Origin: a virus
Reading direction: 5' to 3' (one strand)
Length of the DNA stretch: 23,749 nt
UHGV virus genome: UHGV-1361621
The notes under the pieces were generated by a model. It worked only from the letters and a program-made list of their open reading frames with translations, did no database searches and had not been told where the DNA came from. Below, in pieces: positions 4,242 through 23,591 of the stretch (positions are counted from its first letter, which is position 1; every line of letters starts with the position of its first letter). Position numbers and translations under genes: made by a program.

Positions 4242-4253
4242 TCTATTCCCCTT

Positions 4254-5699: not shown

Positions 5700-6296
5700 T
5701 TAATAACCTCGCAATCCTCTTAGTCCTTTACCTTGCACAATATAGCAACCTCCATAGTTAGCGTCTGGCAACTCTTCTTTATATTGATTACCTGCTTTTT
5801 GTCTTATAACTGCTTCACTATCCCAATCATAGTTGGTTTGACAGTATTGTCCTGCGTGAACAAATTTCTTCGCTTGATAACCACCATCAAAGTGATGTTT
5901 AACAAAAAACATACAGTCATTTACATCAAATTCACTTGGATATTCTTCAGCTTGTAATATCTCAATATCATATAACACCTTTATGCGATATAGCTTAATA
6001 GTCATGTCTATATGTCCATCAGCAGTCCATGTTTCGCCTCTCTTGCACTGTTTAGGGTCAATCATATAAAGAACACTGAAACCCATTTCTAAGCTTGTAA
6101 ATTGCCCTATAAGCGTGTGATTTGGACTGTACATGTATTTAAATAAGTCACGTGATATAGACGCTTCTAGCTCTGATACACCATAATTTAAAAAATCAAG
6201 TGGGTTATAAAAGTGAATATCAAACCCGTTCACCTCACTTATAATTCTAATTTGACTCATGTTGCCTACATAAGTATCTCCCAAAGCGTGTGCCAT
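5700..6296 (-). CDS. structural/tail-associated protein, 198 aa
   Basis: Coding ORF abutting the 481-aa gene (stop and start adjacent). Confidence 0.4.
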   Translation of the reverse strand: MAHALGDTYVGNMSQIRIISEVNGFDIHFYNPLDFLNYGVSELEASISRDLFKYMYSPNHTLIGQFTSLEMGFSVLYMIDPKQCKRGETWTADGHIDMTIKLYRIKVLYDIEILQAEEYPSEFDVNDCMFFVKHHFDGGYQAKKFVHAGQYCQTNYDWDSEAVIRQKAGNQYKEELPDANYGGCYIVQGKGLRGLRGY

Positions 6297-6309
6297 TTTT
6301 ATTTCCTTT

Positions 6310-8328: not shown

Positions 8329-8337
8329 ATGTCCCTC

Positions 8338-8628
8338 CTAATTCAATTTAAGACCCTTTGCAAAGTCTTCTAAACCTTTTTCTGCTTTCTCTTCCTCAAT
8401 AGCTGTCTTAACTTTTTCTACCTTAGGTTCAATATAAACCCCCTCAATTTCCATAAGCTTAAACAATGCTTGCTTATCTGGTAGTTTGTGTGTGGTGGTC
8501 ACGTTCTTACCTTTTACAACATCTCGACCATTCGCACCCCTTTGATATTGAACAACCTCTTTTACTTCATCTCCACCAAAAGCTAGAGTTCGTAAAGCTT
8601 CTAACATCTTTTCTTTATCTTTACTCAT
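8338..8628 (-). CDS. small lysine/glutamate-rich protein (96 aa) immediately downstream of TerL; function unknown (TerS-like role not excluded)
   Basis: Its ATG overlaps the TerL stop (TAATG). Confidence 0.5.
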   Translation of the reverse strand: MSKDKEKMLEALRTLAFGGDEVKEVVQYQRGANGRDVVKGKNVTTTHKLPDKQALFKLMEIEGVYIEPKVEKVKTAIEEEKAEKGLEDFAKGLKLN

Positions 8629-10193
8629 TAGCTAAAAAAATCCTCCGCATATTCTTCTTTTTCAATAAACCAATACATTGCGTCACTTAGTGCGTCTGCA
8701 AGGTCTATCTTATCTGCATACCCCTTCTTCTTGATACGCATTAAACCAAAGTCGTTTATTACTGTTTCGGCATTCATCAAATGCACACCAAGTAACTGAC
8801 TATCAAAGTGTAACCTTCCTTCTTGCATAAGTAACTGCATATTTTCTAACGTATTAGACAAGTGGAAGGAGTTTTGTTTAACCTCTTCATAAAATTCAAT
8901 GTCATACGTTTCTTCAAAGCGTCTTAGGAAGTTTGTGGCATGTGCACGGTCATAACATAAAGCAATTGGAACAGCGTCTTTTACACCTTGTGTAGTGAAC
9001 ACCTCCCAAGCTTCGTCACTCTTATTGCTGTCTGTATCGTGCGTGAGCGTTTCTCCTAAGTGTCTAAATTTATCCTCTGCACTTTCTGGCATGATAGGGA
9101 TAGCTTTTACATAATAGTGCCCCTCTTCTCTCCAAACTAACACAGTGCCCCAAACATCTCCCCTAATAGAGAAGTCCGAACCAACCACAACCAGTTTACC
9201 ACTTGGGTCAAGAGTATCACACAAGCAATTATCAACCATTTGTTTTGAGAAAATACTTGTGGTATCGTGCATGCTCAAATTAAAACGTTTAGTGATTACT
9301 TTAGCCATTTTGATAGGATTACCCAAAGCCCCTATAAAGTCGCTCTGTATATCCTCTAATGTGACTGTAAGACCTATTGCGGGGTTAGCCTTGTGATACG
9401 TTTCTGGTTTGTGTACCTCGTCATAATCATCTAAAGCATAATAGAACACCCAACGGGTAAAGTCCTCGTTCCTTACCCATTCTTTCCACGATTTCAATTC
9501 ATCATCATAAGCACCGCCTCGAATGACGTTGTTAGTAGTTGAAATAAACAAGAGCCCTTTATTTTTTCTGAGCCCCTGTCTGATTGTGATAAGCGGGTTC
9601 TTTTTGAATGCTCCGAACTCGTCCACGATTACAAGTTGTTCACGTCCACCGTCCAAGCTATCCTCATTTGAAGCATATACGGTTATTTCTGTGCCTTTAC
9701 TATCCAAGAAAGAATTGTCCTTGACCTTGATTTTATCTTGGTTGATTTTGATTTGGTTTTGGAACAGGTTTATAATCGTCCCCTGTGTGTTTGCCATAGC
9801 CCTAAAGTGTTTCATAAGGATTTGTTGCGCTTGGTCTTTTTTCGTTGCCATAAGAGCTATAACAGCATTAGGCATAGGAAGTAAGAACATAACAACTAAA
9901 GCGATCATGACATCAAGTATTGATTTTGCATTTGACCGACCTACAATAACCACTACTTCCGATACATCATAAGGGATACAGAAGGTTAGAGTAAGTACAG
10001 CTTTGTGATAAGGTATGATTTTAAAACGCTCATTATTTGGTAAGGTCATGTACTCTTCTAAGAAATTAAAAATTTCATCTGCTCTTTTATAGTCAATTTC
10101 ATCTTCTATTTTTAGAGCTTTCTCTTTAAGAGCTACAATTTCAGACCCCCACTCTTTTGAACTGTCCCCTATCCATTCTGTTAGCCTACTCAT
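8628..10193 (-). CDS. terL: terminase large subunit
   Basis: Walker A-like VIVGRSNAKS and Walker B LVIVDEFGAF in the N-terminal ATPase domain. The C-terminal RNaseH-like nuclease domain has acidic motifs VVGSDFSIRGD and DKIDLADALSDAMY. The start is chosen at ATG 10193 (MSRLTEW...), 2 nt after the HNH stop. The track's 10277 start would overlap the HNH gene by 82 nt. Confidence 0.85.
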   Translation of the reverse strand: MSRLTEWIGDSSKEWGSEIVALKEKALKIEDEIDYKRADEIFNFLEEYMTLPNNERFKIIPYHKAVLTLTFCIPYDVSEVVVIVGRSNAKSILDVMIALVVMFLLPMPNAVIALMATKKDQAQQILMKHFRAMANTQGTIINLFQNQIKINQDKIKVKDNSFLDSKGTEITVYASNEDSLDGGREQLVIVDEFGAFKKNPLITIRQGLRKNKGLLFISTTNNVIRGGAYDDELKSWKEWVRNEDFTRWVFYYALDDYDEVHKPETYHKANPAIGLTVTLEDIQSDFIGALGNPIKMAKVITKRFNLSMHDTTSIFSKQMVDNCLCDTLDPSGKLVVVGSDFSIRGDVWGTVLVWREEGHYYVKAIPIMPESAEDKFRHLGETLTHDTDSNKSDEAWEVFTTQGVKDAVPIALCYDRAHATNFLRRFEETYDIEFYEEVKQNSFHLSNTLENMQLLMQEGRLHFDSQLLGVHLMNAETVINDFGLMRIKKKGYADKIDLADALSDAMYWFIEKEEYAEDFFS

Positions 10194-10195
10194 GT

Positions 10196-10483
10196 TTAAA
10201 TTCTCCCCTCTGCTATTAGTTTTGCATAGTCTACTAAGTCCCCGCTTCTTTCTTTTGATTGGTGGCAAGCGTGACACACTACCTCAATAGGTTGGTATAT
10301 AAGTTCTTCCCTGCTGTCTGCTTCCACTTTACCATTTACCCATTGTATCGGTACAATGTGGTGCGCTATAAGGTCATAAGTTTTATAACATCTCTCACAA
10401 TGTCCTACTTCGTTTTTACATTTATTTGCGTAATTCTTCCACATTTGAGAGCCGTATATTTCCCCCTTTGTATATACTGGCAT
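10196..10483 (-). CDS. HNH endonuclease
   Basis: 95 aa carrying CERCYK...HHIVP...CHACH (CxxC/HH/CxxCH). Sits directly upstream of terL, as in cos phages where HNH assists terminase. GGAGG SD. Confidence 0.8.
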   Translation of the reverse strand: MPVYTKGEIYGSQMWKNYANKCKNEVGHCERCYKTYDLIAHHIVPIQWVNGKVEADSREELIYQPIEVVCHACHQSKERSGDLVDYAKLIAEGRI

Positions 10484-10490
10484 TCTCTCA

Positions 10491-12623
10491 TTACCTCCGT
10501 GTCAATTTAATACCGTTTCTTTCAAGTTTGCTATAAATATCTTTCGCTATCTTGTCTGCGTCATTACCATAAACATTAATGTTTACTTTGTTTTGTGATT
10601 GGTCATAGCTTGTCTGGCTATTAGTTGTACCAATTGAACCATTAAAGCCCACAGGAACGTTAGAAAGCAAGTTTTGAGTAGCTTTGTCATAGTTCCCGAA
10701 CAGTTGCAAGTGCATACCTAAAGGCTTACTCATAGAGCCGTATATCTTTTCTGTGACACCTTGTAAAGTATCATCAAAATCACTAGCTAACATAGGGCTT
10801 ACTAACCAACTACGACCGCCACCGCTTCCGCTGTGTCCCCCCGCTTGTGCAATATTATCCGCCATGCGCTTCTTATCAAAGAGCTTTTGAAACCACCCTA
10901 TTGCGTCTTGTATCCACCCGATAAGGTCAGCAAGTGAAGAAATGATTGAACCAATATCACTAATGAATCCCGATACATCTGCCCAATTAATTTGCTTCAA
11001 CCAATTGCGCACTTCGTAATAAGCGTCTGATACTTTGCCTGCTACCTTGTCAAAAGCTTTCCCTAGCTCCTCGTTAGATACTTCTCCATCACCGTTAGCG
11101 TCAATAAGTTTAATCATGTTATTAACAACATATCCTGCAAGCTGTCCCATTTTTTCCCCGACAAGCATAGAAAGATTTGTGGCAGTGTCCCCGAACTCTC
11201 CCATGCTAAAGCCTGAACTTGTCAACTCTGATTGGAAACCACTCAAAGCGCTTGTATCAAACCCTTTTCTAACCATTTCTTTAAGCTGTGTAAAAGTAAT
11301 TTGACCGCTATTAGCTGTATCTTCCGCTTGTTTTTTAAACTTTTCAAGAGCTAAATTCATGACCTCGGTATTAAATACCCCGTCTTCCATAGATTGCTTG
11401 AAATTATCCATTGTGATAGTACCATCTTGTTGGGCATTCATAGCATTTAACAAGCTTGTAGTGAAGTTTGTACCAAGTACGTTATTAAAATCCTCAATAG
11501 TAAGCTTACCCTCTTTTAATTGGCGCTTAATATCTCCAACTGATACCTTAAATCCTTTGTTCGCTTCCTGTGCTTTAGCCATTTTCTTTGCCCAATCAGA
11601 ACCAAAAGTATCAGCTAACATGTTGGCTTCTATCTTGCCCTCTTTCAAAGCGTCTGGCAACTCTTTAGCACTCATGGCTACACCTTGCAACTCATTGGCG
11701 GCTTCAATAAGCAAGTCACGGAACTGTGCACCTAGTGAACTTTGCATAATCTGGTTAAAGTCCTGCGCATGCAATACACCTGCCCCAAGAGCTTGTGAAA
11801 GACCGTAAGTAAATTGTTTTTGAGTATCCATTGAAAGCCCTAAGCTGTCCCCTACCGCATTGATAGCATTGACGATTTCAAAGGCTTCGTCCCCTGTTAC
11901 TTTTACATAACCTGAAATGAAAGAGGCAAGTTCTGCAAGGTCATTACGTTGTGATTGCAAGAGTAACGAACCTTTTTCAATATGACTGTTAAAATCTTGA
12001 TAACCTTTCGCACCGTCTGCCAATGTAACTGAAAGAGATTTCTGTGCACTCAATTGGCTGTCATAGGTATCCATTAAACGGTTAGCAAAGCCTCCCACAA
12101 GGTCAACTGCTTTCCCAATGCCATTAGACACCATACCAACACCACTTGAAACAGCTGTAAAAATCATTGAGAACTTAGAGCCAATATCTAACAAGCCACT
12201 TCCAAATGATTTTATTTTACCAACACCACCACTAAACATAGATTTGAATTTATCTAAGCCCCGTGGTGTGACATCTACCCCTTTAAGTTGGTGCAGTTCG
12301 CTCTCCAAGTTGTTTGCACTTATTTGCGCTTTACGCAATTGACTTTCTAAATTTGATACTTGTTTCTCTGTCCCACCGTTTAGCTTGACTTTTGCAAGTG
12401 ATTGTGTTAGTTGGTCAACGTTCTTTTTAGCAAGTGATAAAGCTCTCTCTGTATCTTTGATTGCCTTGTCTTTCATCTCGACTTTACCAGTTATTTTGGC
12501 ATTCTTGCTAGCACTCTTGGCAACTCGTCCAATCTCATTAATTTCTTTTTGTAGCGTCTTTGCGTCTGATAAAGCTTTCTTTGTTTCTAACTCGGTTTGA
12601 ATGACATATTTTTCTTTAGCCAT
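10491..12623 (-). CDS. tail tape measure protein (710 aa)
   Basis: Long N-terminal coiled-coil followed by Gly/Ser-rich hydrophobic segments. Sits immediately downstream of the overlapping chaperone pair. At about 0.15 nm per residue the length implies a tail of roughly 105 nm. Confidence 0.8.
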   Translation of the reverse strand: MAKEKYVIQTELETKKALSDAKTLQKEINEIGRVAKSASKNAKITGKVEMKDKAIKDTERALSLAKKNVDQLTQSLAKVKLNGGTEKQVSNLESQLRKAQISANNLESELHQLKGVDVTPRGLDKFKSMFSGGVGKIKSFGSGLLDIGSKFSMIFTAVSSGVGMVSNGIGKAVDLVGGFANRLMDTYDSQLSAQKSLSVTLADGAKGYQDFNSHIEKGSLLLQSQRNDLAELASFISGYVKVTGDEAFEIVNAINAVGDSLGLSMDTQKQFTYGLSQALGAGVLHAQDFNQIMQSSLGAQFRDLLIEAANELQGVAMSAKELPDALKEGKIEANMLADTFGSDWAKKMAKAQEANKGFKVSVGDIKRQLKEGKLTIEDFNNVLGTNFTTSLLNAMNAQQDGTITMDNFKQSMEDGVFNTEVMNLALEKFKKQAEDTANSGQITFTQLKEMVRKGFDTSALSGFQSELTSSGFSMGEFGDTATNLSMLVGEKMGQLAGYVVNNMIKLIDANGDGEVSNEELGKAFDKVAGKVSDAYYEVRNWLKQINWADVSGFISDIGSIISSLADLIGWIQDAIGWFQKLFDKKRMADNIAQAGGHSGSGGGRSWLVSPMLASDFDDTLQGVTEKIYGSMSKPLGMHLQLFGNYDKATQNLLSNVPVGFNGSIGTTNSQTSYDQSQNKVNINVYGNDADKIAKDIYSKLERNGIKLTRR

Positions 12624-13009
12624 TATAAAAGCCCCCTTATTTGTCGTCTAATTTTCTGTGCATTTGATTTGTAATCATAGTTAGCCTTAACTAAGTGCCT
12701 GCTATATCGTTGGTGTAAGTACCTATCATGTGCTAAAACGTTAAGCATTCGCCAACTTTCGTCTTTTGATTTGAAACCATTGATATAACCAATCATACCG
12801 CCTTTAATTGAGCCGTAAGCACGTGTTCTGGGTTTAAGCTGTGAAGTATCAAAGGTAACTGGATAACGGCTAAAATCGCCCCCTAATGTGCTCTTACGTG
12901 TTTGTTTAACTTCTTGTAAGTTATCGTTATGAACTCGTGCAATCTTCTTTGCTAAGTCCCCTGTGATTTCCCCTACTACTTTTTCGGGGTTGATTGTGGT
13001 CTTTGCCAT
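12623..13009 (-). CDS. -1 frame extension ORF of the tail assembly chaperone (GT-like C-terminal part)
   Basis: Overlaps the upstream 160-aa ORF by 34 nt in the -1 frame. Its stop overlaps the tape measure start (TAATG). Confidence 0.55.
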   Translation of the reverse strand: MAKTTINPEKVVGEITGDLAKKIARVHNDNLQEVKQTRKSTLGGDFSRYPVTFDTSQLKPRTRAYGSIKGGMIGYINGFKSKDESWRMLNVLAHDRYLHQRYSRHLVKANYDYKSNAQKIRRQIRGLL

Positions 13010-13458
13010 AATTTAACCTCAACGTGTTCCATATTATTTAACTCGTCCGCTGTAACTTTTTCTTTTTCTTTTGGCATGAGCTTCTTAATTAACCCTAGCG
13101 TCCATTTTAAGGGTCGTTTCGCATAGACTGGATAAGTTATACCAAGAGAAGAGCAAACAGCGCTTATCTGTGCTGTATTTAGCTCATGTGGCTTATCTGG
13201 GATAATTACTACACCATGTTTTCCTTTTGGTTTATCCTCTGCCATATACTTGTCTATGATTTCCCCCATAGTGATTGGCATTTTCCCGTGCATGATTGTG
13301 TGAAGAATTTCTTCTTTTGTGTACTTATCATCACAGCAAGCCCAATAAAAGCGTGCAATCTCTATAAAATTATCTGGGTCAATCTTCATAAAGTTAATAT
13401 CTAAGTCTTCCATTTTGGCTAGTGCTTCATAGGAGAAACAAAAATCTTCTTTTAACAT
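12976..13458 (-). CDS. tail assembly chaperone (G-like), 160 aa
   Basis: In the canonical position between the major tail protein and the tape measure protein. Ends within the G_AAA_AAG heptamer region. Confidence 0.6.
   Translation of the reverse strand: MLKEDFCFSYEALAKMEDLDINFMKIDPDNFIEIARFYWACCDDKYTKEEILHTIMHGKMPITMGEIIDKYMAEDKPKGKHGVVIIPDKPHELNTAQISAVCSSLGITYPVYAKRPLKWTLGLIKKLMPKEKEKVTADELNNMEHVEVKLWQRPQSTPKK
12979..12985 (-). other. candidate -1 programmed ribosomal frameshift slippery heptamer G_AAA_AAG (minus strand) joining the G and GT chaperone frames
   Basis: Read on the minus strand, ...ACC CCG AAA AAG TAG is in the 160-aa frame, and the -1 frame continues GTA GTA GGG into the 128-aa ORF. 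A AAG at the A-site is the classic bacterial shift site. Confidence 0.5.
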
Positions 13459-13509
13459 GTTTCACTTCCTTTGTCAAGTAATATTTATTAAGTAATTAAG
13501 TAATATAAT

Positions 13510-13540
13510 AAGGGGTACTATTACCTTCCAAGCCACCCCT
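13510..13540 (-). terminator. possible attenuator/terminator-like hairpin (AAGGGGT stem, 17-nt loop, ACCCCTT stem) in the 91-nt gap after the major tail gene
   Basis: 7-bp GC-rich inverted repeat, the only sizeable intergenic gap inside the late operon. No clean U-run follows, so it is weak as an intrinsic terminator. Confidence 0.25.
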
Positions 13541-13549
13541 TACTTTAAA

Positions 13550-14182
13550 TTATCCGCCCACGACTGTACCAATGTCAGTTGGCTCTAATGGTTTCAACTC
13601 TGTAAAGAGTTTCTCAAATGCAAGAGCTTCCTTACTTGTACCTGTTGCCAAGTCCTCGTCTGATACCATGAAATTAATCAATAAACGGGCTTTACCTTTT
13701 ACGACAAAGTTACCGCTTGTAATAGTCGCTTTGTGTTCGTACTCTTTACCTGTTGGACTTTCCTCGTCAGCTTGTGCGCTGTCACTTGGAGTTGTAGCCT
13801 GTGCACTTGGGTAGAAAGTAACTTTATAACCTGTCTTTTCATTATCACGGAAGCGTTCAGCATACGCAAACCCGTAAGGCTTGTAGGCTGTTGTGTCATC
13901 CCCCATGAAAGACCCGCCCAAGTTTTCAAAACCAAGAGCATGGCAAGCAAATTCTGACGGTAGGTCATAAGATTTTACAGTGATTTCACGTTTTAACGCA
14001 CCTGCAATAGTACGATACGGGGCACTAAACCCTGCGTAAAAGTTCACATTCTCTTGGTTGTTTTCGGTATCAATAGCACGCAGTCCCGCAATAGGGACAC
14101 CTTTAGTAGTGGAAGCACCTTTTAAGAAAGTCACTCCATAACCCAGCCCGTGCGTAAGTTCATTTAAAGCAGTATAAGCCAT
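13550..14182 (-). CDS. major tail protein (210 aa)
   Basis: Position immediately upstream of the G/GT chaperones. Size and composition are typical of siphoviral major tail proteins. The hairpin downstream fits high-stoichiometry expression. Confidence 0.5.
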   Translation of the reverse strand: MAYTALNELTHGLGYGVTFLKGASTTKGVPIAGLRAIDTENNQENVNFYAGFSAPYRTIAGALKREITVKSYDLPSEFACHALGFENLGGSFMGDDTTAYKPYGFAYAERFRDNEKTGYKVTFYPSAQATTPSDSAQADEESPTGKEYEHKATITSGNFVVKGKARLLINFMVSDEDLATGTSKEALAFEKLFTELKPLEPTDIGTVVGG

Positions 14183-14184
14183 AA

Positions 14185-14784
14185 TTAAGCATTACCTCCG
14201 ATTTCTTTCGTTACATTATCGGCATACCAAGCACCCAAGCAACGCATAGTGCCGTACACCTTTACTTTATTGTGTTGCATATCCATGCTTACCACGATTG
14301 TAGGAGTTATCTCCCCAAACAAAACACCCGTATCTGGGTTGATTGCAATAGTTTTAGCAGTTTTAAAGTAATCAACTTGATACTTAGGAATAGATAAAGG
14401 TACATAGTCATTATCATTTGTCAAGATGATGTCTGACATACCCTGTACAAATGTTCCTGTACTGTGAGTAAGTGCACTTTCTACCATATCCTTTTCAAGG
14501 TCTTTATAAATTTGTCGTGTAATCATGTCTACCGCAACATTGATAGCACCCTGTGTAATATCCCCGTTGTTATGGAAAACAATTTCATGCGTGTAAGCTT
14601 TACCGTCCCCAAGGACTTTAGTTTCAAAGTTACCCGCTAAACCGTCCACAACTTTAAACGTTTGTAAGACATCACTATCAACTACCCGCAAGCGTGATAA
14701 AAGAGGGAACTGCTCAAATGTCTGCCCCTCTAATACGCTCGTGATAGTTTGGGCATATCGACTTGTTACATCAAAATAAGCCAT
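14185..14784 (-). CDS. head-tail connector / head completion protein (199 aa)
   Basis: Sits between the capsid and major tail genes. AGGAGGG SD 6 nt before the ATG. Confidence 0.4.
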   Translation of the reverse strand: MAYFDVTSRYAQTITSVLEGQTFEQFPLLSRLRVVDSDVLQTFKVVDGLAGNFETKVLGDGKAYTHEIVFHNNGDITQGAINVAVDMITRQIYKDLEKDMVESALTHSTGTFVQGMSDIILTNDNDYVPLSIPKYQVDYFKTAKTIAINPDTGVLFGEITPTIVVSMDMQHNKVKVYGTMRCLGAWYADNVTKEIGGNA

Positions 14785-14808
14785 TTAAAGCCCTCCTAAT
14801 CTCTTTTA

Positions 14809-16239
14809 CTATGCTTCCGCCTTAGGCGTTAAAGTGATAAACACAGAGCGACCACGACCACGGATAGAGCCACCCACAAGCATTTCTGCCAACCATTGGT
14901 CAACGTTGTAACGTAAGTCAAAATCAACGTAATTGTTCATATCCAAGTCGCCAATAAGGACAAACTCTTCTTTGATATACATTGCAATCTCGTTTTGACC
15001 CATCCAAGCACGTGTTTCAATTGAGATAGCACCAAATGAGTTAGCGATTTGCTCTTTAGTTGCCAACTCGTTGAAACGTGAGTGACCGTCAGAGCCTTTA
15101 GCCTTGCGCAATTCAGCATAAGTTTTAGGGTGCATAACAACTACTACATTTTGATTATAAGAAACCTCTGCAATAGCGTCTGTCAACACTTCAAAAAGGT
15201 CAACTTTAGCAAGGTCAAAAGTGAGTTGTGGAGTCCAACCTGTTGTGTCTCCTTTAAGACCATAGATACCATTTGAGCCGTCTGCTTTACCGTAAATCAT
15301 GTTAAACTCAATTTGGTTAATAACACGTTGAGGAAGCACAGACATAACGTATTTAGAAAGTTCGCCTGTATCATCTACACCTGACACAGTCCCTTTATCC
15401 ATTTCCATGTAAGCATAAGCCATTTGAGGACGCAAAGAGCGTTTTGTTGCTGTGAGCTCTTCTTTCTTATCTCCGCCCGCTACAAAGAGGTCACGCTTGA
15501 AGATACCATTGTCCCCGTCGTCTGCCAAAGTCAAACCTTGAAAGCGTGCTTTTGTTGCTCCTGCAAAGAGTGAAGATTTAGAAGCCCATTGTGATGTGAT
15601 TGACCCAAGTTGATTAGACACAGCCAAGTTCCCTGCGTTGGTAAACTCACGCAAGAAAGTCTTTTCTGGGGTCTTTTGCATTTCTGCGCCTAACTCACGA
15701 TAAAAGAGTTCTTCATCATCTTTAGCCGTGTCTGTTGGGATTTGAGCTTCACGCTCTTTCTTCATTTCAGCCTGTACTTCTTCTAGCTCGCGTACTTTCG
15801 TTTCAAGAGCCTTCTTTTCAGCTTTTTCTTCCGCAAGTTGCTCAATTACTGCGTTAAGTCCGTCATTTACACCCATGTTTTCTTGTTCTCCTTCTTCTTC
15901 TTTGTTTTCTTTTTCTCGTACTTTTGTCACTTTAGCGCCTTTGTTGCTAGGCAGTGGAGTTAGTGACACCTCTTTTACAACGACATCTTTATAGAACGCA
16001 ATTCCGTCCACCTCTCGGGCTTTCATATCTAAGGCATTCCACCCAATAGATAAGCCTGCTTCTTCCAATGAACCCTCATAAGCGTCGTCTTGTACATATC
16101 CTGTGAGAATTAAATTGCCGTCCTCAACATGGATAAACCCTGACCCGATTTTCTCACGGTGTCGGTTGCAGATGTCTACACCTTCCTTTTCATTGCGGAC
16201 ACTCTCAATTACTGTTTTGTGACTGTCCAACGTTCCCAA
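14809..16239 (-). CDS. major capsid protein (HK97 fold) with an N-terminal prohead-protease-like segment and an acidic coiled-coil scaffold-like linker (476 aa)
   Basis: The N-terminus carries LDSHK...GLSIGWNAL...EVSLTPLPSNKGAKV, resembling the His / G-x-S-x-G / EVSLV..PAN motifs of HK97-family prohead proteases. Residues about 120-180 are an E/K-rich coiled-coil. The C-terminal roughly 290 aa have the composition of an HK97-like capsid protein. TTG start. Confidence 0.55.
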   Translation of the reverse strand: MGTLDSHKTVIESVRNEKEGVDICNRHREKIGSGFIHVEDGNLILTGYVQDDAYEGSLEEAGLSIGWNALDMKAREVDGIAFYKDVVVKEVSLTPLPSNKGAKVTKVREKENKEEEGEQENMGVNDGLNAVIEQLAEEKAEKKALETKVRELEEVQAEMKKEREAQIPTDTAKDDEELFYRELGAEMQKTPEKTFLREFTNAGNLAVSNQLGSITSQWASKSSLFAGATKARFQGLTLADDGDNGIFKRDLFVAGGDKKEELTATKRSLRPQMAYAYMEMDKGTVSGVDDTGELSKYVMSVLPQRVINQIEFNMIYGKADGSNGIYGLKGDTTGWTPQLTFDLAKVDLFEVLTDAIAEVSYNQNVVVVMHPKTYAELRKAKGSDGHSRFNELATKEQIANSFGAISIETRAWMGQNEIAMYIKEEFVLIGDLDMNNYVDFDLRYNVDQWLAEMLVGGSIRGRGRSVFITLTPKAEA

Positions 16240-17071
16240 AGGATTTGCTATCCCCCGAATTGCTTTGACTCCTATTTAGAGCACCTTCCTTTCCTGTTGT
16301 TGAAATATAAGCTACAAAATTTTCACGGTTAAACGTTGCATTTGGGCTGTGCTGTTTGATAAGCGGTTGTATCTTTTGCACGATAAATGTGATAAGAGAA
16401 ACCTCGTTACTTGTACCGTACAAAAGTTCTCTAGGCATACCATACTCAGCCAATGCAATATCAATTGCCAACTCCCCGTCATTCTTCACAGACCCGCTGT
16501 AATCTGGTTGCATTTGAGTGATTTTATCATCTTCACTCACTACCGTCATACCTCGGAACTCTTTAGCAAGTTCTGTCATACGGGTTAAACGCTCACGCAA
16601 TCTGTCCCATACTTCTTTCAAGCCACTGGCTACTTTCGTGTGCCAATAGACTTTGATTTGACCTTGACTGTCCAAACGACGACCAACACCATTAGAAGCC
16701 ATACCAAATAAAGCGCTAAAGCGTCTGGGGTTAGCTCCGTAGAATGGATTGTAAATCAGCTCATAGCTATCAGCTCTGACTGTTACCATTCGTTTGTTTG
16801 GCTCACGGACATAAATATTAAACTGATTTCCGTTTACCCTTAAAGCATAATAATTAAAGCCTCCTAAGGAAATTTTATAAACCTCTTGTCCCGTCAAGCA
16901 CAAACTAAATAAGTCATTAAGCTGTGCGCTATCCTTATAATTCACTCCGTCAAAGTAAGAAACCAAGCCTAAACACTTCTGTAGAATTAGGTCAGTTGTT
17001 GGATTGGAAACCGTGAAACTTGAAAAGCTTACATCTTCCGCTTGTGGTCTTAGTGGATTGTAAACATTCAA
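16205..17071 (-). CDS. head morphogenesis protein, 288 aa (portal/connector candidate)
   Basis: Sits between the lysin and capsid genes. TTG start 4 nt after GAGGTGA. No other ORF in the window is a better portal candidate, but 288 aa is short for a portal. Confidence 0.35.
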   Translation of the reverse strand: MNVYNPLRPQAEDVSFSSFTVSNPTTDLILQKCLGLVSYFDGVNYKDSAQLNDLFSLCLTGQEVYKISLGGFNYYALRVNGNQFNIYVREPNKRMVTVRADSYELIYNPFYGANPRRFSALFGMASNGVGRRLDSQGQIKVYWHTKVASGLKEVWDRLRERLTRMTELAKEFRGMTVVSEDDKITQMQPDYSGSVKNDGELAIDIALAEYGMPRELLYGTSNEVSLITFIVQKIQPLIKQHSPNATFNRENFVAYISTTGKEGALNRSQSNSGDSKSFGNVGQSQNSN

Positions 17072-17084
17072 CTAATCACCTCGC

Positions 17085-17747
17085 TCAATTCTTTTCTTTT
17101 GGTTTAGGGTAAATAGCTCTAAACTCTTTATCATACATTTTGGTGTATGGGAATTTGATTTTATTGTGTCCATCTTGACCTAAATAAAAATTAAGTTCAC
17201 GTTCTGTCTTAATCCAACGTGCGTTGAATCCGTCACAGATGTAATGTGCGTTGTTGTTCAAATTATAAATAACATACATATCTAAATTTACCTCTTCCTT
17301 TTCTTGTGGTTTTGGTTTTTCTGTTTGTTTATGTTTTACAGCTCGGACACCGTCCACAACTTCCGACCAACCTAAGTAGCGCATTTGCCAACCCATAAAC
17401 CTTATAAGCTCTGCACCACTGCCATATGGCTTATTACGTCTGCCACTAGCATATTCACTATCGTAAATCTTAGTCGTCTTACCGTCTGAATAGTACCAAG
17501 CAACATGCCCATAACCTGCGTATCGTCCATTTTCAATAGTGTAATAAACAGGTACCCATACATTGTTAGGCGGTTCTTCGTTGGGGTGTGCTGTCTTGTT
17601 AGCTACAGCATTGTTCCAAGACTGTTGCGCACTTCCTGCACGGTGTGAGTCTGGTGCTTTTACTGCGTCATCTACATACTGCAAACACCAACCACTAGCT
17701 CCCGATACATTCACGTTAGGTGTTGCGACCTGAACAAATGGTATCAT
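17085..17747 (-). CDS. CHAP-domain peptidoglycan hydrolase (endolysin), 220 aa
   Basis: Catalytic Cys in SGWCLQYVDDA and catalytic His in GYGHVAWYYSDG, as in CHAP amidase/peptidase domains. A C-terminal roughly 90 aa could be a binding domain. AAGGAG SD. Confidence 0.7.
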   Translation of the reverse strand: MIPFVQVATPNVNVSGASGWCLQYVDDAVKAPDSHRAGSAQQSWNNAVANKTAHPNEEPPNNVWVPVYYTIENGRYAGYGHVAWYYSDGKTTKIYDSEYASGRRNKPYGSGAELIRFMGWQMRYLGWSEVVDGVRAVKHKQTEKPKPQEKEEVNLDMYVIYNLNNNAHYICDGFNARWIKTERELNFYLGQDGHNKIKFPYTKMYDKEFRAIYPKPKEKN

Positions 17748-17750
17748 TAA

Positions 17751-18260
17751 TCACTCCTTTTCATATATTGTTTTATAGTCAACGGCTTCACAGTACAATA
17801 ATTGTGCTAGTGCGTCCGCTTTATTATCGTCTTTAGTTGGTTCTCCCATAACACGCTCGTAAAGCTCACAGCTTGCGTCCTTACGCTCTTTTCGTTTACC
17901 TTTGATAAGATGGTAGGCACACCACTTAGAGTTCCTTATATTGTAAATATAGCCCTTTGTGAGTGCGTGCATTTTACCCAAGGCATAACCATTCCATTGA
18001 GCTAATTCTATTGAGCCTGCGCTATTGCCTGCCAATATAGGACGCTCTATACAGATGTCATAATCTTGCAAGCCGTTTTCTAAAATAATATCCTCTAGCT
18101 TTTCTACAATAATCAAAGTACGGCTTTTCATGGTAGACCCTTTTGTATAAGGCTTAATAGAACCCACAATAAGTTTTCCCTCTTCATCTCGGAAAGCATA
18201 CCCTGTACCCTCTTTTGATTTAGAGCCTGTACTAAAATCAATACTTAATATTTTTTTCAA
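17751..18260 (-). CDS. RuvC-like Holliday junction resolvase (about 169 aa)
   Basis: Begins MKKILSIDFSTGSK (RuvC-type start with a catalytic Asp) and has the D-ADALAQLL C-terminal motif. The real start is probably TTG 18260, 8 nt after AGAGGAG, overlapping the stop of the small upstream ORF (TTGA). The track's 18296 TTG lacks an SD. Confidence 0.65.
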   Translation of the reverse strand: MKKILSIDFSTGSKSKEGTGYAFRDEEGKLIVGSIKPYTKGSTMKSRTLIIVEKLEDIILENGLQDYDICIERPILAGNSAGSIELAQWNGYALGKMHALTKGYIYNIRNSKWCAYHLIKGKRKERKDASCELYERVMGEPTKDDNKADALAQLLYCEAVDYKTIYEKE

Positions 18261-18400
18261 ATTGGTAGCTCCTCTGTATATATAACAGCATAGCAATCAG
18301 ATTTATTGTATTCAATCTTCTTTATAAGGTTCTCCCTTTTTAAGAAACTAATTGCCTGCTCAAAGTCCTCAATAGTGGGACACATGTATTTACTTTTCAT
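18257..18400 (-). CDS. first late gene, 47-aa protein (MKSKYMCPTIEDFEQAISFLKRENLIKKIEYNKSDCYAVIYTEELPI)
   Basis: ATG 18400 sits 9 nt after GGAGG (18410-18414). Its stop TGA overlaps the RuvC TTG start. Not in the ORF track because it is under 60 aa. Confidence 0.5.
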   Translation of the reverse strand: MKSKYMCPTIEDFEQAISFLKRENLIKKIEYNKSDCYAVIYTEELPI

Positions 18401-18430
18401 AAGTGATTACCTCCCTCAATCACAATAACT

Positions 18431-18436
18431 ATTATA
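18431..18436 (-). promoter_or_regulatory. candidate late promoter -10 (TATAAT on the minus strand) with no recognisable -35; possibly activator-dependent
   Basis: Perfect -10 hexamer about 18 nt upstream of the SD of the first late gene. The sequence at -35 (CTGTCA) is poor. It is face-to-face with early promoter P1. Confidence 0.35.
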
Positions 18437-18451
18437 CACTGTATAAAAAGC

Positions 18452-18480
18452 TTGACAGAATTTTAAATCTTTGCTATAAT
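18452..18480 (+). promoter_or_regulatory. early promoter P1: TTGACA(18452-18457), 17 nt, TATAAT(18475-18480)
   Basis: Perfect consensus hexamers at optimal spacing. Confidence 0.7.
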
Positions 18481-18510
18481 GGATTTGGTGCTCACTTTTG
18501 CTAGTTATAG

Positions 18511-18538
18511 TATATATGTTACACTTTTGCACATTAAA
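18511..18538 (+). promoter_or_regulatory. conserved 28-bp element copy 1 (TATATATGTTACACTTTTGCACATTAAA); candidate operator or ori element
   Basis: Repeated with one mismatch at 19068-19095. A partial CACTTTTGC repeat lies at 18493-18501. Confidence 0.4.
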
Positions 18539-18577
18539 CTTGTAATGAATTAGAAACAGTATTGTAACCATCTTGTG

Positions 18578-18606
18578 ATTGACATAGGGTGGAAAAGTGA
18601 TATAAT
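18578..18606 (+). promoter_or_regulatory. early promoter P2: TTGACA(18578-18583), 17 nt, extended -10 TGaTATAAT(18598-18606); upstream context CTTGTGATTGACA
   Basis: Perfect consensus with a TG extension. The AAAAAGGAGGT SD follows at 18620-18630. Confidence 0.75.
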
Positions 18607-18770
18607 AAAGACATAAAGAAAAAAGGAGGTAGTCAAACATAGCAAGACCAAAACAAAAAGAATGTACTAATTGTCATGGTTTAAATCCTAAGTGTCACTA
18701 TCTCGAAACTGGTAGAAAGTGCAGGGTTAAACAAAAGACATTAGACAAACGAAACATAAGAGAGAGGCTT

Positions 18771-19520: not shown

Positions 19521-19776
19521 TAGCTTAGAAGCACATGCTATAAAATTATTTGTTGAGTTATACGGTTGGGTTTATACAGTTGGCGAAAGAGTGCTTGAAG
19601 ATGATATAATAAGTCAGGACATTGTTATGAGGTGGATAGGACTAACAACCAAATTAGAAAGGAAGGCGAAACAGCTCTATAATGCTGTACCATGTGACAC
19701 AACTAAAAGAGGTTGGGTAAGAGCGTTAGAGCTGAAAACACAATTTAATGACAGACAATACCCTAAGGCTAGATGA
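19507..19776 (+). CDS. hypothetical early protein (89 aa)
   Basis: ATG within the end of the preceding peptide gene, in the usual coupled arrangement. Confidence 0.5.
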   Translation: MKKNDSLEAHAIKLFVELYGWVYTVGERVLEDDIISQDIVMRWIGLTTKLERKAKQLYNAVPCDTTKRGWVRALELKTQFNDRQYPKAR

Positions 19777-20668
19777 TTTCGGATATACTGCGGTAGATAA
19801 TGACCCATTCAAAAGGTTAATTACCGCACAAGACCTAAAAGAAAAAGAAGAGTTTCAAGAAGCCAATTCTTGGTACATTAAAGATATACTCCCTAAAGGT
19901 GTAGGGGGTCTTGTTGTTGCACCACAGAAAAGCTTTAAGAGTTCAACGACTTTGTTTATGGCTCACGCTATTGCAACTGGCACACCATTTGGAGAACATG
20001 AAACGACAAAAGCCAACGTTCTTATTATTGATAATGAAGACACAGAATTTACTTTACATCAACGATTAAACGGCTATGACGGCTCACTAGCGGGCTTATG
20101 GTTCTTGACTGGTGGTATATTCAAGATGGATAATAAAGACAATCTGAACAAGCTATACAGCGTCATAAAGGAGTTAGATATTAAAGTAGTTATCTTAGAC
20201 TGTTTGAAAGATATGCTCACTAGTCCCGACAGCTTGAACGATATGCACAAGATGAATGAAATTTTAATGCGTATCACAAAGCTAAAGTTATTGCTCGGGG
20301 ATGTTACTTTCTTAGTAGTGGCTCACGCTAGGAAGGATTGTTTTGACAGGTCTTTAGAAGAACCATTATTCAGAACACGCTCTACCCATGCTCTTGGCTC
20401 TTCTGCTATTGGTGCATGGCATGAAGTATGTTTCACTCTAAGCCCTAAGATAAGCAAAAAGACAGGAAACAAGTATTCTATTATTGAAGTGGAAGCACGT
20501 AACTTTAACTATGATAAGCCAATCTGCGTGGGATATGTTGACGATAGATTTACAATCATAGACCCTACTGTAAAAGTGGAAACAGGCGAACAATTGGAAG
20601 GAGGAGAGGCTACCGAATTTTTAGACACCCTAAAACTAGCGGGAAAAGTTACAGAAATAAATGATTGA
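19748..20668 (+). CDS. RecA-fold P-loop ATPase of the AAA_25/DnaB-C-like type (replication or recombination protein), 306 aa
   Basis: P-loop-like VAPQKSFKSSTTLFMAHAIATG (a degenerate GxxxxGKS/T), Walker B VVILDCL, and the FLVVAHARKD motif that resembles the hhhhHH.RK motif of AAA_25 proteins. Confidence 0.55.
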   Translation: MTDNTLRLDDFGYTAVDNDPFKRLITAQDLKEKEEFQEANSWYIKDILPKGVGGLVVAPQKSFKSSTTLFMAHAIATGTPFGEHETTKANVLIIDNEDTEFTLHQRLNGYDGSLAGLWFLTGGIFKMDNKDNLNKLYSVIKELDIKVVILDCLKDMLTSPDSLNDMHKMNEILMRITKLKLLLGDVTFLVVAHARKDCFDRSLEEPLFRTRSTHALGSSAIGAWHEVCFTLSPKISKKTGNKYSIIEVEARNFNYDKPICVGYVDDRFTIIDPTVKVETGEQLEGGEATEFLDTLKLAGKVTEIND

Positions 20669-20754
20669 ACATAATTAGAAAGTAGGTTAGACCCCATTTA
20701 TTTTAATTCCTTGTATTGTAACTAACCCGTAATAATAGTTTAAAGCTCTTGTAA

Positions 20755-20783
20755 TTGACAGGGGCTTTTTTTATTGTTATACT
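20755..20783 (+). promoter_or_regulatory. early promoter P3: TTGACA(20755-20760), 17 nt, TATACT(20778-20783); upstream CTCTTGTAATTGACA as at 2391-2405
   Basis: Near-consensus promoter, followed by the conserved ATGTAAGATAAATAAAG element at 20788-20804. Confidence 0.65.
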
Positions 20784-20816: not shown

Positions 20817-20963
20817 ATGGTAGCAAACGGCAAAATGGATTGCGTAAAAGCATTTGAAGAATTAATCTTGGAAGCAAAGAATGAAGGTGAAGCTTCTAAT
20901 GAAAAAATCAAAGATTATGAGGTAATCTTGGATAATCTTAAAAAGTTGAAGGAGTTGGCATAA
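20817..20963 (+). CDS. small protein (48 aa, MVANGKMDCVKAFEELILEAKNEGEASNEKIKDYEVILDNLKKLKELA)
   Basis: AAAGGAG SD 8 nt before ATG, downstream of P3. Below the ORF-track size cutoff. Confidence 0.5.
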   Translation: MVANGKMDCVKAFEELILEAKNEGEASNEKIKDYEVILDNLKKLKELA

Positions 20964-21004: not shown

Positions 21005-21033
21005 TTGACATTCGCAACAAAGTTAGTTATAAT
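21005..21033 (+). promoter_or_regulatory. early promoter P4: TTGACA(21005-21010), 17 nt, TATAAT(21028-21033), followed by the same ATGTAAGATAAATAAAG element (21038-21054) and a leader hairpin GATAAG-CGGAA-CTTATC (21062-21078)
   Basis: Perfect consensus promoter. The downstream 17-mer is identical to the P3 element and sits at the same 4-nt offset from the -10. Confidence 0.7.
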
Positions 21034-21121: not shown

Positions 21122-21241
21122 ATGTTGACACTTATTGTACTTGCAGTTATTGCATTCTTTGTATTTAGAAAATTTATCACTGGCTTGTATAATGCTAGTG
21201 TTGCAGTAACTAAACATTTTGAGGAGGAAGAATATGAGTAA
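21122..21241 (+). CDS. small membrane peptide with an acidic tail (39 aa, MLTLIVLAVIAFFVFRKFITGLYNASVAVTKHFEEEEYE)
   Basis: Its initiation region ATTGGAGGTAGGAAAAATG is nearly identical to that of the 19113 peptide gene. One predicted TM helix. Confidence 0.5.
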   Translation: MLTLIVLAVIAFFVFRKFITGLYNASVAVTKHFEEEEYE

Positions 21242-21443
21242 AGAAAAAACCACCTATGCACTTTATAGAGTGGTAGAAGGAGGGGATGAACAAATAATCA
21301 CAGTTGGCACAGTTGACGAACTTGACTATGTGACTAACTTTGACCGTAAAAAGTTTTATCAAAAAGTAAAAGATGACAAACGCAAACCCAAAAAGAGAAA
21401 CCCAAACACAGGAACACTCAAACTTTATAAAGTGGAGGATTGA
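21234..21443 (+). CDS. basic hypothetical protein (69 aa, MSKEKTTYALYRVVEGG...)
   Basis: ATG 21234 is 6 nt after GAGGAGG. The track's TTG at 21219 lies inside the SD. Confidence 0.55.
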   Translation: MSKEKTTYALYRVVEGGDEQIITVGTVDELDYVTNFDRKKFYQKVKDDKRKPKKRNPNTGTLKLYKVED

Positions 21444-21560
21444 ATGTGTAAAAAACTAATGTCTATTACTATTTCATATCGTGATTTAGATGATTTAATC
21501 AGACAAATTAACAACCTTAAAAATAACCCGCTTATCGGACAACACACAAAAATTTATTTA
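21444..21560 (+). CDS. small hypothetical protein (38 aa)
   Basis: TGAATG coupling to the upstream gene. Below the ORF-track cutoff. Confidence 0.35.
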
Positions 21561-21576
21561 GAAAGTGATTTTTATT

Positions 21577-21873
21577 ATGGTTAGACAATTTAGAACAGTT
21601 GAAGAAGCAAATGAATTTATTGAAGAGCAAGACAAAATAATTAAAGAGCTTAACCAAGACATTGCGGAATTAAATGCAGAGCTTGAAGAGTTAGAGGAAC
21701 AATATTTTGAACAAGGAGAATATGTTGAAGAACTCGAATATGATTTATCAGAGGTAGAAAATAGCTATGATGAATTGAGTGAATTGCATGATGACGCACT
21801 TGAAGAAATTGCACGCTTAGACAAAGTTTGCGAAACTTATGAGAAAGAAATGGAGGCGTTGGAGAATAGCTAA
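21577..21873 (+). CDS. very acidic coiled-coil protein (98 aa; about 40% Asp+Glu); candidate DNA mimic or regulatory/anti-defence protein
   Basis: ATG 21577 (MVRQFRTVEE...). Extreme acidity with heptad-like EELEE repeats. Confidence 0.55.
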   Translation: MVRQFRTVEEANEFIEEQDKIIKELNQDIAELNAELEELEEQYFEQGEYVEELEYDLSEVENSYDELSELHDDALEEIARLDKVCETYEKEMEALENS

Positions 21874-22156
21874 AGAATGGGTTGTACCAGAAGAAAAGAA
21901 AATAATCGAAATAACTTACCACTTTTCAGACGGTACAGAAATCACAAAACAGGCAGACCCAATAGGAACAGACATGTTAAGAAAGTTAGAACAAGACGGG
22001 GCAACACTTTACGACTGTGCAGAGCTGTTATACAAGCCCCTAAGCAAGTTAGAAATGTCCCTAGGTGTTGTATCACGATATATGATAGACACGCTTAAAA
22101 TGGATGAGAAGAGCGCACAGGACACAATAAACAGTATTTTAGAAAGTTGGTTTTAA
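21839..22156 (+). CDS. hypothetical early protein (about 105 aa; start uncertain)
   Basis: Long ORF overlapping the 3' end of the acidic gene. No clear SD, and the next in-frame ATG is far downstream. Confidence 0.45.
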   Translation: MRKKWRRWRIAKEWVVPEEKKIIEITYHFSDGTEITKQADPIGTDMLRKLEQDGATLYDCAELLYKPLSKLEMSLGVVSRYMIDTLKMDEKSAQDTINSILESWF

Positions 22157-22159
22157 ATT

Positions 22160-22507
22160 ATGGCAAAAGATTACTATACAAACAAAAACGGATTTCAATT
22201 GATTGATTTTATGGTTCGCAAAAATCCTATTTCAGAGCGTGCAAGTTCAGATAATTTTACAGTGGAAGAAGGTTTCTTTACATTGAATGCTGTTAAATAC
22301 GCAATCCGTGCAGGCATGAAAGAAGGCGAAACATTTAAAAAAGACATGGAAAAATTTAACGACTATGTGGAAGCGTTGGTTAAATGTGGTTATGACCGTA
22401 TAGAAATTGTCAAAACCATCAACGGTTATAAACAAGCTTTCCTTGAATGGGACGGTACAGACGAATATATTGACGATTTATTTAAAGGAGGCAATTGGAT
22501 AGCATGA
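22160..22507 (+). CDS. hypothetical early protein (115 aa)
   Basis: Coding ORF whose stop overlaps the next start (ATGA 22504-22507). Confidence 0.55.
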   Translation: MAKDYYTNKNGFQLIDFMVRKNPISERASSDNFTVEEGFFTLNAVKYAIRAGMKEGETFKKDMEKFNDYVEALVKCGYDRIEIVKTINGYKQAFLEWDGTDEYIDDLFKGGNWIA

Positions 22508-22797
22508 GCATTCCATTAGATTGGGACGATTTCAAAGACTGGCGGGACGCTTCACTAAACTATCACGCATATAACACGCTAGACGCTTATAGCATGGCTT
22601 TCAATTATTTCGAATTGGCTAGAGAATTCTATCAAGTGAAAGGCTTTCCTAAGCGTGAGAAATACAAGACAGGTAAGAAGGCAGGGGAATACAAGCCATT
22701 GTCTAAAGACTTTGTTAAACAGCATGAAGAAGAACGCCAAACATGGATAAAACGCACAGCAGAAAAGAAAGGAATTAAACCACCTAGCGAATTGTAA
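22504..22797 (+). CDS. hypothetical early protein (97 aa, Lys-rich C-terminus)
   Basis: ATGA-coupled start. AAGGAGG SD upstream at 22484-22490. Confidence 0.55.
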   Translation: MSIPLDWDDFKDWRDASLNYHAYNTLDAYSMAFNYFELAREFYQVKGFPKREKYKTGKKAGEYKPLSKDFVKQHEEERQTWIKRTAEKKGIKPPSEL

Positions 22798-23021: not shown

Positions 23022-23591
23022 TTGAAAGTATCGGAACAAAACAAAGAATTATTTCAAGCCTTGACAATTGCACGGGCTAAAATAGTACAGCCTAAAAAAG
23101 ACAAGGCTAACCCTTATTTCGGATCTAAGTATGTGCCACTTGAGGCTGTTGTGGATTGTGTTGAAAATGCTCTTGAAGGTACGGGTTTGAGTTTTTTACA
23201 GGATATAGAAAACAACGAACTAAGCACAGTTATTTTCCACGAAAACGGACAATGGGCTTCACTTGGTGCAGTTGAGCTAAAACCAACTAAGAATGACCCT
23301 CAACAGCTAGGAAGTGCTATCACATACGCAAGACGCTACTCACTTAGTACTGTGTTTGGTATCACAAGTGAAGAAGATGATGACGCAAATAGCGCAAGCG
23401 GTTATAACAAAGCACCTACACAAAAGAAACAACAAGCAAAACCAAAAGCACAACCTAAACAACCACAAAAAAAAATGTATAAAAAAACATGGTTGTTAGA
23501 ACAAATTAATTTAGGGACTATGACAAGCGACCATGCAAACGAACTATACAAAAATGGTCAAGTAATTGACGACACGAAAGGACAAGCATAA
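23022..23591 (+). CDS. erf: ERF-family single-strand annealing protein (Sak-like), 189 aa
   Basis: GSAITYARRYSL is the characteristic ERF core motif. Low-complexity basic/Gln-rich C-terminus. TTG start 9 nt after AAGGAG. Confidence 0.7.
   Translation: MKVSEQNKELFQALTIARAKIVQPKKDKANPYFGSKYVPLEAVVDCVENALEGTGLSFLQDIENNELSTVIFHENGQWASLGAVELKPTKNDPQQLGSAITYARRYSLSTVFGITSEEDDDANSASGYNKAPTQKKQQAKPKAQPKQPQKKMYKKTWLLEQINLGTMTSDHANELYKNGQVIDDTKGQA

Follow-up and report, generated by a model that had tools for sequence, protein, structure and literature searches.

The DNA mimics Ocr and ArdA are, respectively, a compact helical monomer that assembles into a bent dimer mimicking about 24 bp and a protein of three domains. 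Ocr is expressed early from its phage, contains 29% Asp + Glu and carries a net charge of -28. Lambda Gam, a phage-encoded inhibitor of RecBCD, is helical and possibly dimeric, lies beside a phage recombinase module, and is 17% acidic with a net charge of -8. The T7 protein gp5.9 (Pfam PF25708; PDB 8B1R) mimics DNA by means of a parallel coiled coil that occludes the RecBCD DNA site; it is homodimeric despite its acidity and does not inhibit AddAB (PMC9836394). In lactococci, the PARIS system senses negatively charged anti-restriction proteins, and mutants of phage c2 that escape PARIS are mutated in c2_ORF2, an acidic early protein with a negative cluster that is outside the six proteins found to be toxic in the trigger assay (PMC12184496).

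The window, that is the whole stretch of DNA analysed (23,749 bp), is a near-complete c2/Ceduovirus-like Lactococcus phage genome in circularly permuted form. Among isolates, the L. petauri phages LG75P1 and LG75P3 (23.6 kb) are closest to it, and DNA similarity to these and to the L. lactis Ceduovirus phages extends over about a fifth of the genome, mainly structural genes. The late, structural module occupies the - strand at 4254-18640 and includes a homolog of the protease-scaffold-MCP precursor (14809-16239; Pfam L_lactis_ph-MCP in relatives). The early genes lie on the + strand, beginning at 18771 and continuing past the end of the window to ~3600, followed by a strong terminator at 3625-3666. 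Their order is collinear with the early region of the lytic phage c2 and comprises the e5 ATPase (AAA_25, 19748-20668), e11/DUF3310 (22160-22507), e13 (22495-22797), Erf (23022-23591), SSB (689-1036), and e17 to e20 (1048-2378), all on the + strand. Four promoters with a 12/12 match to TTGACA-N(16-17)-TATAAT are found on the + strand at 18452 and 18579 (both within 18452-18606), 21005, and 2400, and resemble the annotated early promoters EP1-EP6 of c2. The synteny and the consensus promoters point to the acidic gene being an early gene of a virulent phage, as had been proposed.

The ORF at 21577-21873 (+) is a real gene. It encodes a 98-aa protein with 7 Asp and 28 Glu residues (35/98, 35.7% acidic), 4 Lys, and 3 Arg, resulting in a net charge of -28 and a pI of 4.05, and it is the most acidic among the 41 plausible ORFs of the window, with the runner-up at 25%. 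The original prediction of about 40% Asp + Glu slightly overstates the composition of the whole protein and is accurate for residues 36-98, and its count of eight basic residues is reached when the single His is added to the seven Lys and Arg residues. The gene is under purifying selection, with dN/dS values of 0.11-0.34 relative to its relatives (codons 1-57). Our best guess for the function of the protein, put forward tentatively, is a DNA-mimic or anti-nuclease role. The DNA-mimic idea raised previously is partly supported, as a reasonable candidate rather than a finding.

The acidic gene is the third ORF 3' of a promoter at 21005-21033 (+; TTGACA-17-TATAAT, 12/12 match to the sigma-70-type consensus) that drives the operon. 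The first ORF (21234-21443, +) encodes a basic protein (pI 9.7) of 69 aa from ATG 21234, or of 74 aa from an alternative TTG start at 21219 in the ORF list, and is the ortholog of LG75P1 gp22 (E 6e-12). This ORF also gave a marginal match to phrog_803, 'host nuclease inhibitor' (E 0.0013), for which no counterpart was obtained by phage tblastn or in the PDB; if the match is genuine, the operon would contain genes for two candidate anti-nuclease proteins. The 46-aa ORF that follows (21444-21584, +) has a stop codon overlapping the start of the acidic gene (ATGGTTAG), an arrangement that suggests translational coupling of the acidic gene to the 46-aa ORF. The 46-aa ORF is present in the relatives L003, L004, and L014 and missing in L001 and L002; these two have a GGAGG ribosome-binding site ahead of the acidic gene in place of the overlap. 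On the 3' side, the acidic ORF overlaps by 35 nt with a gene for a 105-aa protein (21839-22156, +), a homolog of c2 e8 and bIL67 ORF6 (c2 e8, E 1.5e-11 by blastp; LG75P1 gp20, E 1e-24) that also matches phrog_10596. The 5' part of this e8-like gene (window 21839-21970; L001 10240-10330; L003 10240-10330) is conserved as coding DNA in all relatives. An in-frame ATG (21839) is found in the window only, the sole available start in L001 and L002 is a downstream GTG (71 aa), and no gene is called at the 5' part in L001 and L003. A programmed frameshift from the acidic ORF into the downstream gene was considered because relatives lack an in-frame start for this conserved part, and was rejected because the shift needed, as read from the alignment, differs between the window (+1) and L001 (+2/-1).

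The acidic gene lies in the interval that separates the e5-like ATPase gene from the e8-like gene, and the Erf and SSB genes follow further downstream. In c2 and bIL67 the same slot is filled by unrelated, non-acidic genes (e6/e7 and ORF4/ORF5, respectively), indicating that the slot between the ATPase and e8 is a variable accessory region. Such a slot, within an early operon that has a 12/12 promoter and precedes the Erf and SSB genes, favors a mimic role, whereas the fact that c2 and bIL67 manage without the acidic gene counts against it. The position between the AAA_25 ATPase gene and the DUF3310, Erf, and SSB genes would also suit an accessory of the phage's own replication and recombination module, for example one modulating the e5-like ATPase, Erf, or SSB, or a chaperone shielding basic DNA-binding phage proteins; the neighboring proteins are basic, as seen for the 74-aa protein with its pI of 9.7 and for the downstream protein, which begins MRKKWRRWRIAK. 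One would expect a core replication accessory to accompany the ATPase, Erf, and SSB, and c2 and bIL67 share all three but have no counterpart of the acidic gene at this position. Together with a tail that varies in both length and sequence, this makes an accessory role quite unlikely.

Alignment of the relatives divides the protein into two parts. The conserved head, residues 1-35 (MVRQFRTVEEANEFIEEQDKIIKELNQDIAELNAE; 21577-21681, +), shows 65-90% identity across all lineages including LG75P1 gp21, and the variable, hyper-acidic coiled-coil tail, residues 36-98 with the stop codon (21682-21873, +), contains 40% Asp + Glu and 5% Lys + Arg. The tails of the relatives are 44-63 aa in length with 25-59% identity, and all of them retain 40-46% Asp + Glu, 2-5% Lys + Arg, and an uninterrupted heptad in the same register, with an acidic content of 34-38% for the whole protein in all eight variants. 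The acidity is therefore both extreme and seemingly selected, in keeping with a mimic, as the tails diverge and yet stay acidic. This pattern would fit selection for an acidic helical rod and not for a particular tail sequence, with the specificity residing in the head. The tail of the window protein contains an 18-codon insertion relative to the 79-aa forms, L014 represents a third tail type, and L010 is truncated to 90 aa. A diverged ortholog, LG75P1 gp21 (112 aa, 34% acidic), retains 65% identity over a 31-residue head (E 3e-7); both of its flanking genes are homologous to those flanking the acidic gene in the window, and the LG75P1 DNA at this region no longer matches the window at the megablast level.

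Only eight variants are known, all of them in ~24-kb relatives including phage LG75P1. A word search of 5.8 billion proteins returned 4 relatives of the 98-aa protein, and five IMG/VR contigs of 23.6-24.5 kb carry the gene. Exhaustive profile searching across 1.84 billion representatives yielded no further relative, only long repetitive coiled coils, the protein was not found in JGI metagenome contigs, and a search with LG75P1 gp21 as the query gave nothing. The protein is also absent from 185,579 bacterial and archaeal genomes, indicating that it is not a host or prophage housekeeping protein, and this confinement to phages is in agreement with a mimic role. The 98-aa protein founds a new, tiny, phage-restricted family, although the general kind, small acidic early proteins, is already known. 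A family of this size, with no others among the 1.84 billion representatives or in the JGI metagenome scan, may also be explained by a dispensable or low-constraint ORFan, for example a translational-coupling filler for the downstream gene. The tail tolerates the 18-codon indel and the L010 truncation, and the C-terminal end of one 97-aa relative (P0002), basic and not acidic, appears to be frameshifted. The low dN/dS values, the conservation of the head even in LG75P1, the persistent acidity of every tail, and the two independent translation-initiation solutions that are conserved all argue against low constraint, leaving an ORFan of this type distinctly improbable.

The structure of the 98-aa protein was predicted with AlphaFold2 as a monomer from a 5-sequence alignment. 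The model shows one continuous helix comprising residues 8-97 with a mean pLDDT of 95.7, preceded by non-helical residues 1-7. The heptad is exact over residues 8-95, with a positions at 8, 15, 22...92 and d positions at 11, 18...95, and 23 of the 26 a/d positions are hydrophobic; none of 20,000 shuffled sequences reached 23 (mean 13, maximum 19). The heptad-like repeats noted in the original prediction are thus more regular than was claimed. Position c is occupied by ten acidic residues consecutively. Residues at a are largely β-branched and those at d largely Leu, which under the Harbury rules is typical of parallel dimers, and the unbroken heptad with this a/d pattern favors a mimic of the coiled-coil type. 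A hypothetical two-stranded coiled coil of the 90-residue helix would be ~133 Å long, equivalent to ~39 bp, with a net linear charge of -0.45 e/Å, which places it between gp5.9 (-0.30 e/Å) and B-DNA (-0.59 e/Å) and is likewise consistent with mimicry. It had been suggested that structure prediction might reveal a helical dimer with DNA-like charge spacing; the long helix and heptad were obtained in the monomer model, and the charge spacing is estimated only as this linear density. The rod length among the variants ranges from ~107 to 134 Å, which argues against mimicry of a DNA site of fixed length.

The predicted charge distribution leaves the parallel homodimer itself uncertain, since in this register the g-e' pairs (E35-E40, D56-E61, E77-D82, and E91-E96) are four acid-acid pairs with no attractive pair among them. 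In a charge-hydropathy plot the monomer is located deep in the 'natively unfolded' zone (H 0.397 versus a boundary of 0.516). A single α-helix (SAH) domain, in which alternating Glu and Lys/Arg residues form i to i+4 salt bridges, does not account for a 90-residue helix with 5 Lys + Arg and 35 Asp + Glu, and SAH domains lack the hydrophobic a/d seam present here. The helix would thus be expected to form only in an oligomer or in a complex with a partner. The same features could be explained if the protein were the acidic strand of a hetero-coiled coil, unstable alone, that pairs with a basic helix in a protein of the host or the phage (for example a cell-division protein, an SMC-like arm, or a regulator) and sequesters or re-wires this partner without DNA mimicry. 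In support of this, the g-e' pairs of a parallel homodimer are repulsive, folding of a natively unfolded monomer must be coupled to binding, and weak generic matches are seen to SMC, Rad50, LmuB, and JetC arms as well as to DivIC/DivIVA-like coils. However, no basic amphipathic helix of comparable length is encoded nearby, all of the family matches fall far below thresholds with no DivIVA/GpsB chain in the PDB at E<=10, and gp5.9 forms a homodimer even though it is acidic (PMC9836394). A hetero-coiled coil is accordingly judged somewhat unlikely.

Comparison with known families gave only sub-threshold, generic coiled-coil matches in Pfam, PHROG, NCBIfam, and PADLOC (SlyX, SMC, Rad50, LmuB, JetC, and tape-measure proteins), in line with the earlier statement that neither acidic protein can be assigned a function from sequence alone. 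The best 25 matches listed per library (Pfam, PHROG, and NCBIfam) contain no Ocr family, no Ocr chain was matched in the PDB at E<=10, and ArdA was likewise absent from the matches listed for Pfam, PHROG, and NCBIfam and from those in the PDB at E<=10. Membership in the Ocr, ArdA, or Gam families is excluded by the sequence together with the predicted fold of one straight helix (residues 8-97). The resemblance to Ocr and ArdA put forward originally therefore applies to the very high negative charge common to all three, which per residue is greater for the 98-aa protein (-0.29) than for Ocr (-0.24), gp5.9 (-0.15), or Gam, and not to family membership. Like Ocr, the 98-aa protein is probably expressed early and may form an elongated acidic dimer, whereas the variable rod length of its family is unlike the fixed-footprint mimicry of Ocr and ArdA. 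With Gam it shares a phage-encoded, helical, possibly dimeric nature and a location beside a phage recombinase module, but Gam is far less acidic, adopts another fold, and has no sequence similarity to it.

A virion scaffolding or assembly protein, the scenario named at the outset as refuting an anti-defence role, would also be expected to be small, acidic, and helical, as scaffolding proteins often are, and sub-threshold matches to a head-scaffolding PHROG (E 0.011) and to Phi29_MCP (E 0.0018) were obtained. These matches are ordinary coiled-coil noise. The acidic gene belongs to an early operon on the + strand and all structural genes are on the - strand, and c2-like phages have their scaffold built into the protease-scaffold-MCP precursor as an internal domain (PMC13595954). 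The early-operon position and the presence of a scaffold already inside the capsid precursor make this role extremely improbable. A DivIVA/GpsB-like head was considered separately. By eye, the head stretch FRTVEEANEFI resembles B. subtilis DivIVA FRGYDEDEVNEFL; no DivIVA or GpsB chain was matched in the PDB at E<=10, Pfam DivIVA was outside the top matches, and LG75P1 gp21 does not retain the F..NEF residues, so the candidate was rejected.

Searching 177,635 distinct PDB sequences with the family profile identified T7 gp5.9, a proven coiled-coil DNA mimic, as the best match (E 0.018), which favors mimicry, although syntaxin 7 nearly ties with it (E 0.024), and acidic composition combined with a coiled coil is not specific to DNA mimics. 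The hhalign comparison with the gp5.9 alignment gave a probability of 61% and a score of 26.5 over 36-37 residues in heptad register with 35% identity. When the columns of the gp5.9 alignment were shuffled within each heptad position, so that the heptad was preserved, the scores were 22.8 ± 3.2 and 27 of 200 shuffles reached 26.5; unrestricted shuffles, with a mean score of 10.3, would have wrongly suggested significance. Homology to gp5.9 is not supported on this basis, and the likeness, for which the common register and composition account, is an analogy between acidic coiled coils and no evidence of descent. As an analogy of kind, the right counterpart of the 98-aa protein would be gp5.9 and not Ocr or ArdA. 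Both are small early phage proteins with a pI of ~4 that form or are predicted to form a coiled coil with outward-facing Asp and Glu residues, and both are encoded among DNA-metabolism genes. The 98-aa protein differs in being about twice as long (a helix of 90 versus 36 residues) and more acidic, and in being represented by a predicted monomer helix, whereas gp5.9 has a parallel dimer with an N-terminal β brace. It also derives from a phage of Gram-positive bacteria, whose host has RexAB/AddAB, while gp5.9 inhibits RecBCD instead.

A mimic is the most economical reading because it brings together the acidic rod, the early operon between replication and recombination genes, the restriction to phages, and nuclease pressure on the lineage. 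With respect to the latter, Type II sites are strongly avoided in the whole window relative to maximal-order Markov expectations, with 2 GATC sites observed versus 44.6 expected, 0 versus 23.4 for GGCC, 0 versus 17.9 for CCGG, 2 versus 21.7 for CGCG, and 0 CCNGG sites, suggesting heavy nuclease pressure on the lineage. The heptamer GCGCGTG, the L. lactis Chi sequence, occurs on neither strand of the window, where the expected count is estimated at only ~0.65. In the proposed mechanism, the 98-aa protein would oligomerize, most simply as a two-stranded coiled coil, to form a ~13 nm rod with a surface made up almost entirely of carboxylates. As a nucleic-acid mimic, this rod would sit in the groove with which a host DNA-processing enzyme binds DNA and thereby block the enzyme, with the conserved 35-residue head providing target specificity and the tail needing only to stay helical and acidic. 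The most plausible targets would be a DNA-end or restriction-type nuclease, that is, lactococcal RexAB/AddAB or a Type I R-M or BREX-like system. The oligomeric state, the DNA mimicry, and the identity of any target are the parts of this explanation that we infer. Mimicry is a tentative reading because the composition is not specific, the rod length varies, a parallel homodimer would have repulsive g-e' pairs only, and gp5.9 itself is inactive on AddAB.

If DNA mimicry holds for the 98-aa protein, this would be the first mimic of the coiled-coil type from a Gram-positive phage. It would possibly also be the first coiled-coil protein encoded by a phage to inhibit a nuclease of the AddAB/RexAB type, an enzyme class of interest as an antibacterial target; our literature search found no coiled-coil AddAB inhibitor. 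It would also illustrate a simple design rule of a specific head joined to a generic acidic rod, and would be a candidate trigger of plasmid-borne PARIS-type systems in lactococci. Otherwise, the protein adds to the ORFan early proteins and is confined to one small phage clade. A more far-reaching proposal, which we consider unlikely as a whole, is that the protein belongs to a new Gram-positive-phage family of long coiled-coil DNA mimics, the second natural example after gp5.9, in which a conserved head carries an interchangeable acidic rod of variable length, lactococcal RexAB/AddAB or a Type I R-M or BREX-type system is inhibited, and rapid tail change reflects an arms race with PARIS-like sensors of acidic proteins.

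A second acidic early protein was also predicted from the window, and its description was borne out. It comprises 148 aa (2462-2908, +), is helical with 25% Asp + Glu and a net charge of -23, and is encoded behind a perfect consensus promoter at 2400-2428 (+; TTGACA-17-TATAAT, 12/12 match). It shares 90% identity with a 151-aa protein of L001, matches no Pfam, PHROG, NCBIfam, or PADLOC family, and has no tblastn match in 50,697 phage records; from these searches it appears to have no relative outside the clade of the window. The single-sequence AlphaFold2 model of this protein is unreliable (pLDDT 49). The adjacent gene (2924-3334, +) encodes a 136-aa acidic protein with a net charge of -10 that is a weak homolog of c2 e21 (E 6.6e-4) and bIL67 ORF19 (E 4.6e-4, both by blastp) and matches phrog_10769 (E 5e-4). 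Paralogy between the 148-aa protein and this e21-like protein is unsupported by blastp. From locus-tag and gene order only, c2_ORF2 is probably e21, so that its weak homolog in the window is the 136-aa protein. Like the 98-aa protein, c2_ORF2 is an acidic early protein of the same phage lineage, but the two are not homologous. Escape from PARIS through c2_ORF2 (PMC12184496) indicates that host defence sees acidic early proteins of the c2 lineage, which is in line with a mimic role and makes both acidic proteins of the window testable as PARIS triggers. An abundant acidic protein such as the 98-aa protein could potentially also trigger PARIS-type sensors.

Several further features of the genome were noted. 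Promoter sites with an 11/12 match are located on the early strand at 20755 and 22820, and a terminator-like hairpin at 20742-20768 overlaps the -35 box of the former. The hairpin that ends the early region at 3625-3666 has 19 pairs, and the ORF at 3907-4257, with its low-complexity translation rich in Tyr, Ile, and Thr, is probably not a gene; by analogy with c2, the stretch 3625-4257 may hold the cos site. In L001, an HNH_3 endonuclease gene (5791-6207, 138 aa) adjoins the DUF3882/Holliday-junction-resolvase gene and is missing from the window (compared at 17751-18296), L003, and L004, making it a likely mobile homing-endonuclease insertion. A 48-aa helical protein encoded at 20817-20963 (+; MVANGKMDCVKAFEELILEAK...) is by eye close to LG75P1 gp24 and also resembles gp25, the neighbor of gp24 in LG75P1 (compared at L005 9493-9800, -); if this likeness by eye holds, gp24 and gp25 would be tandem paralogs.
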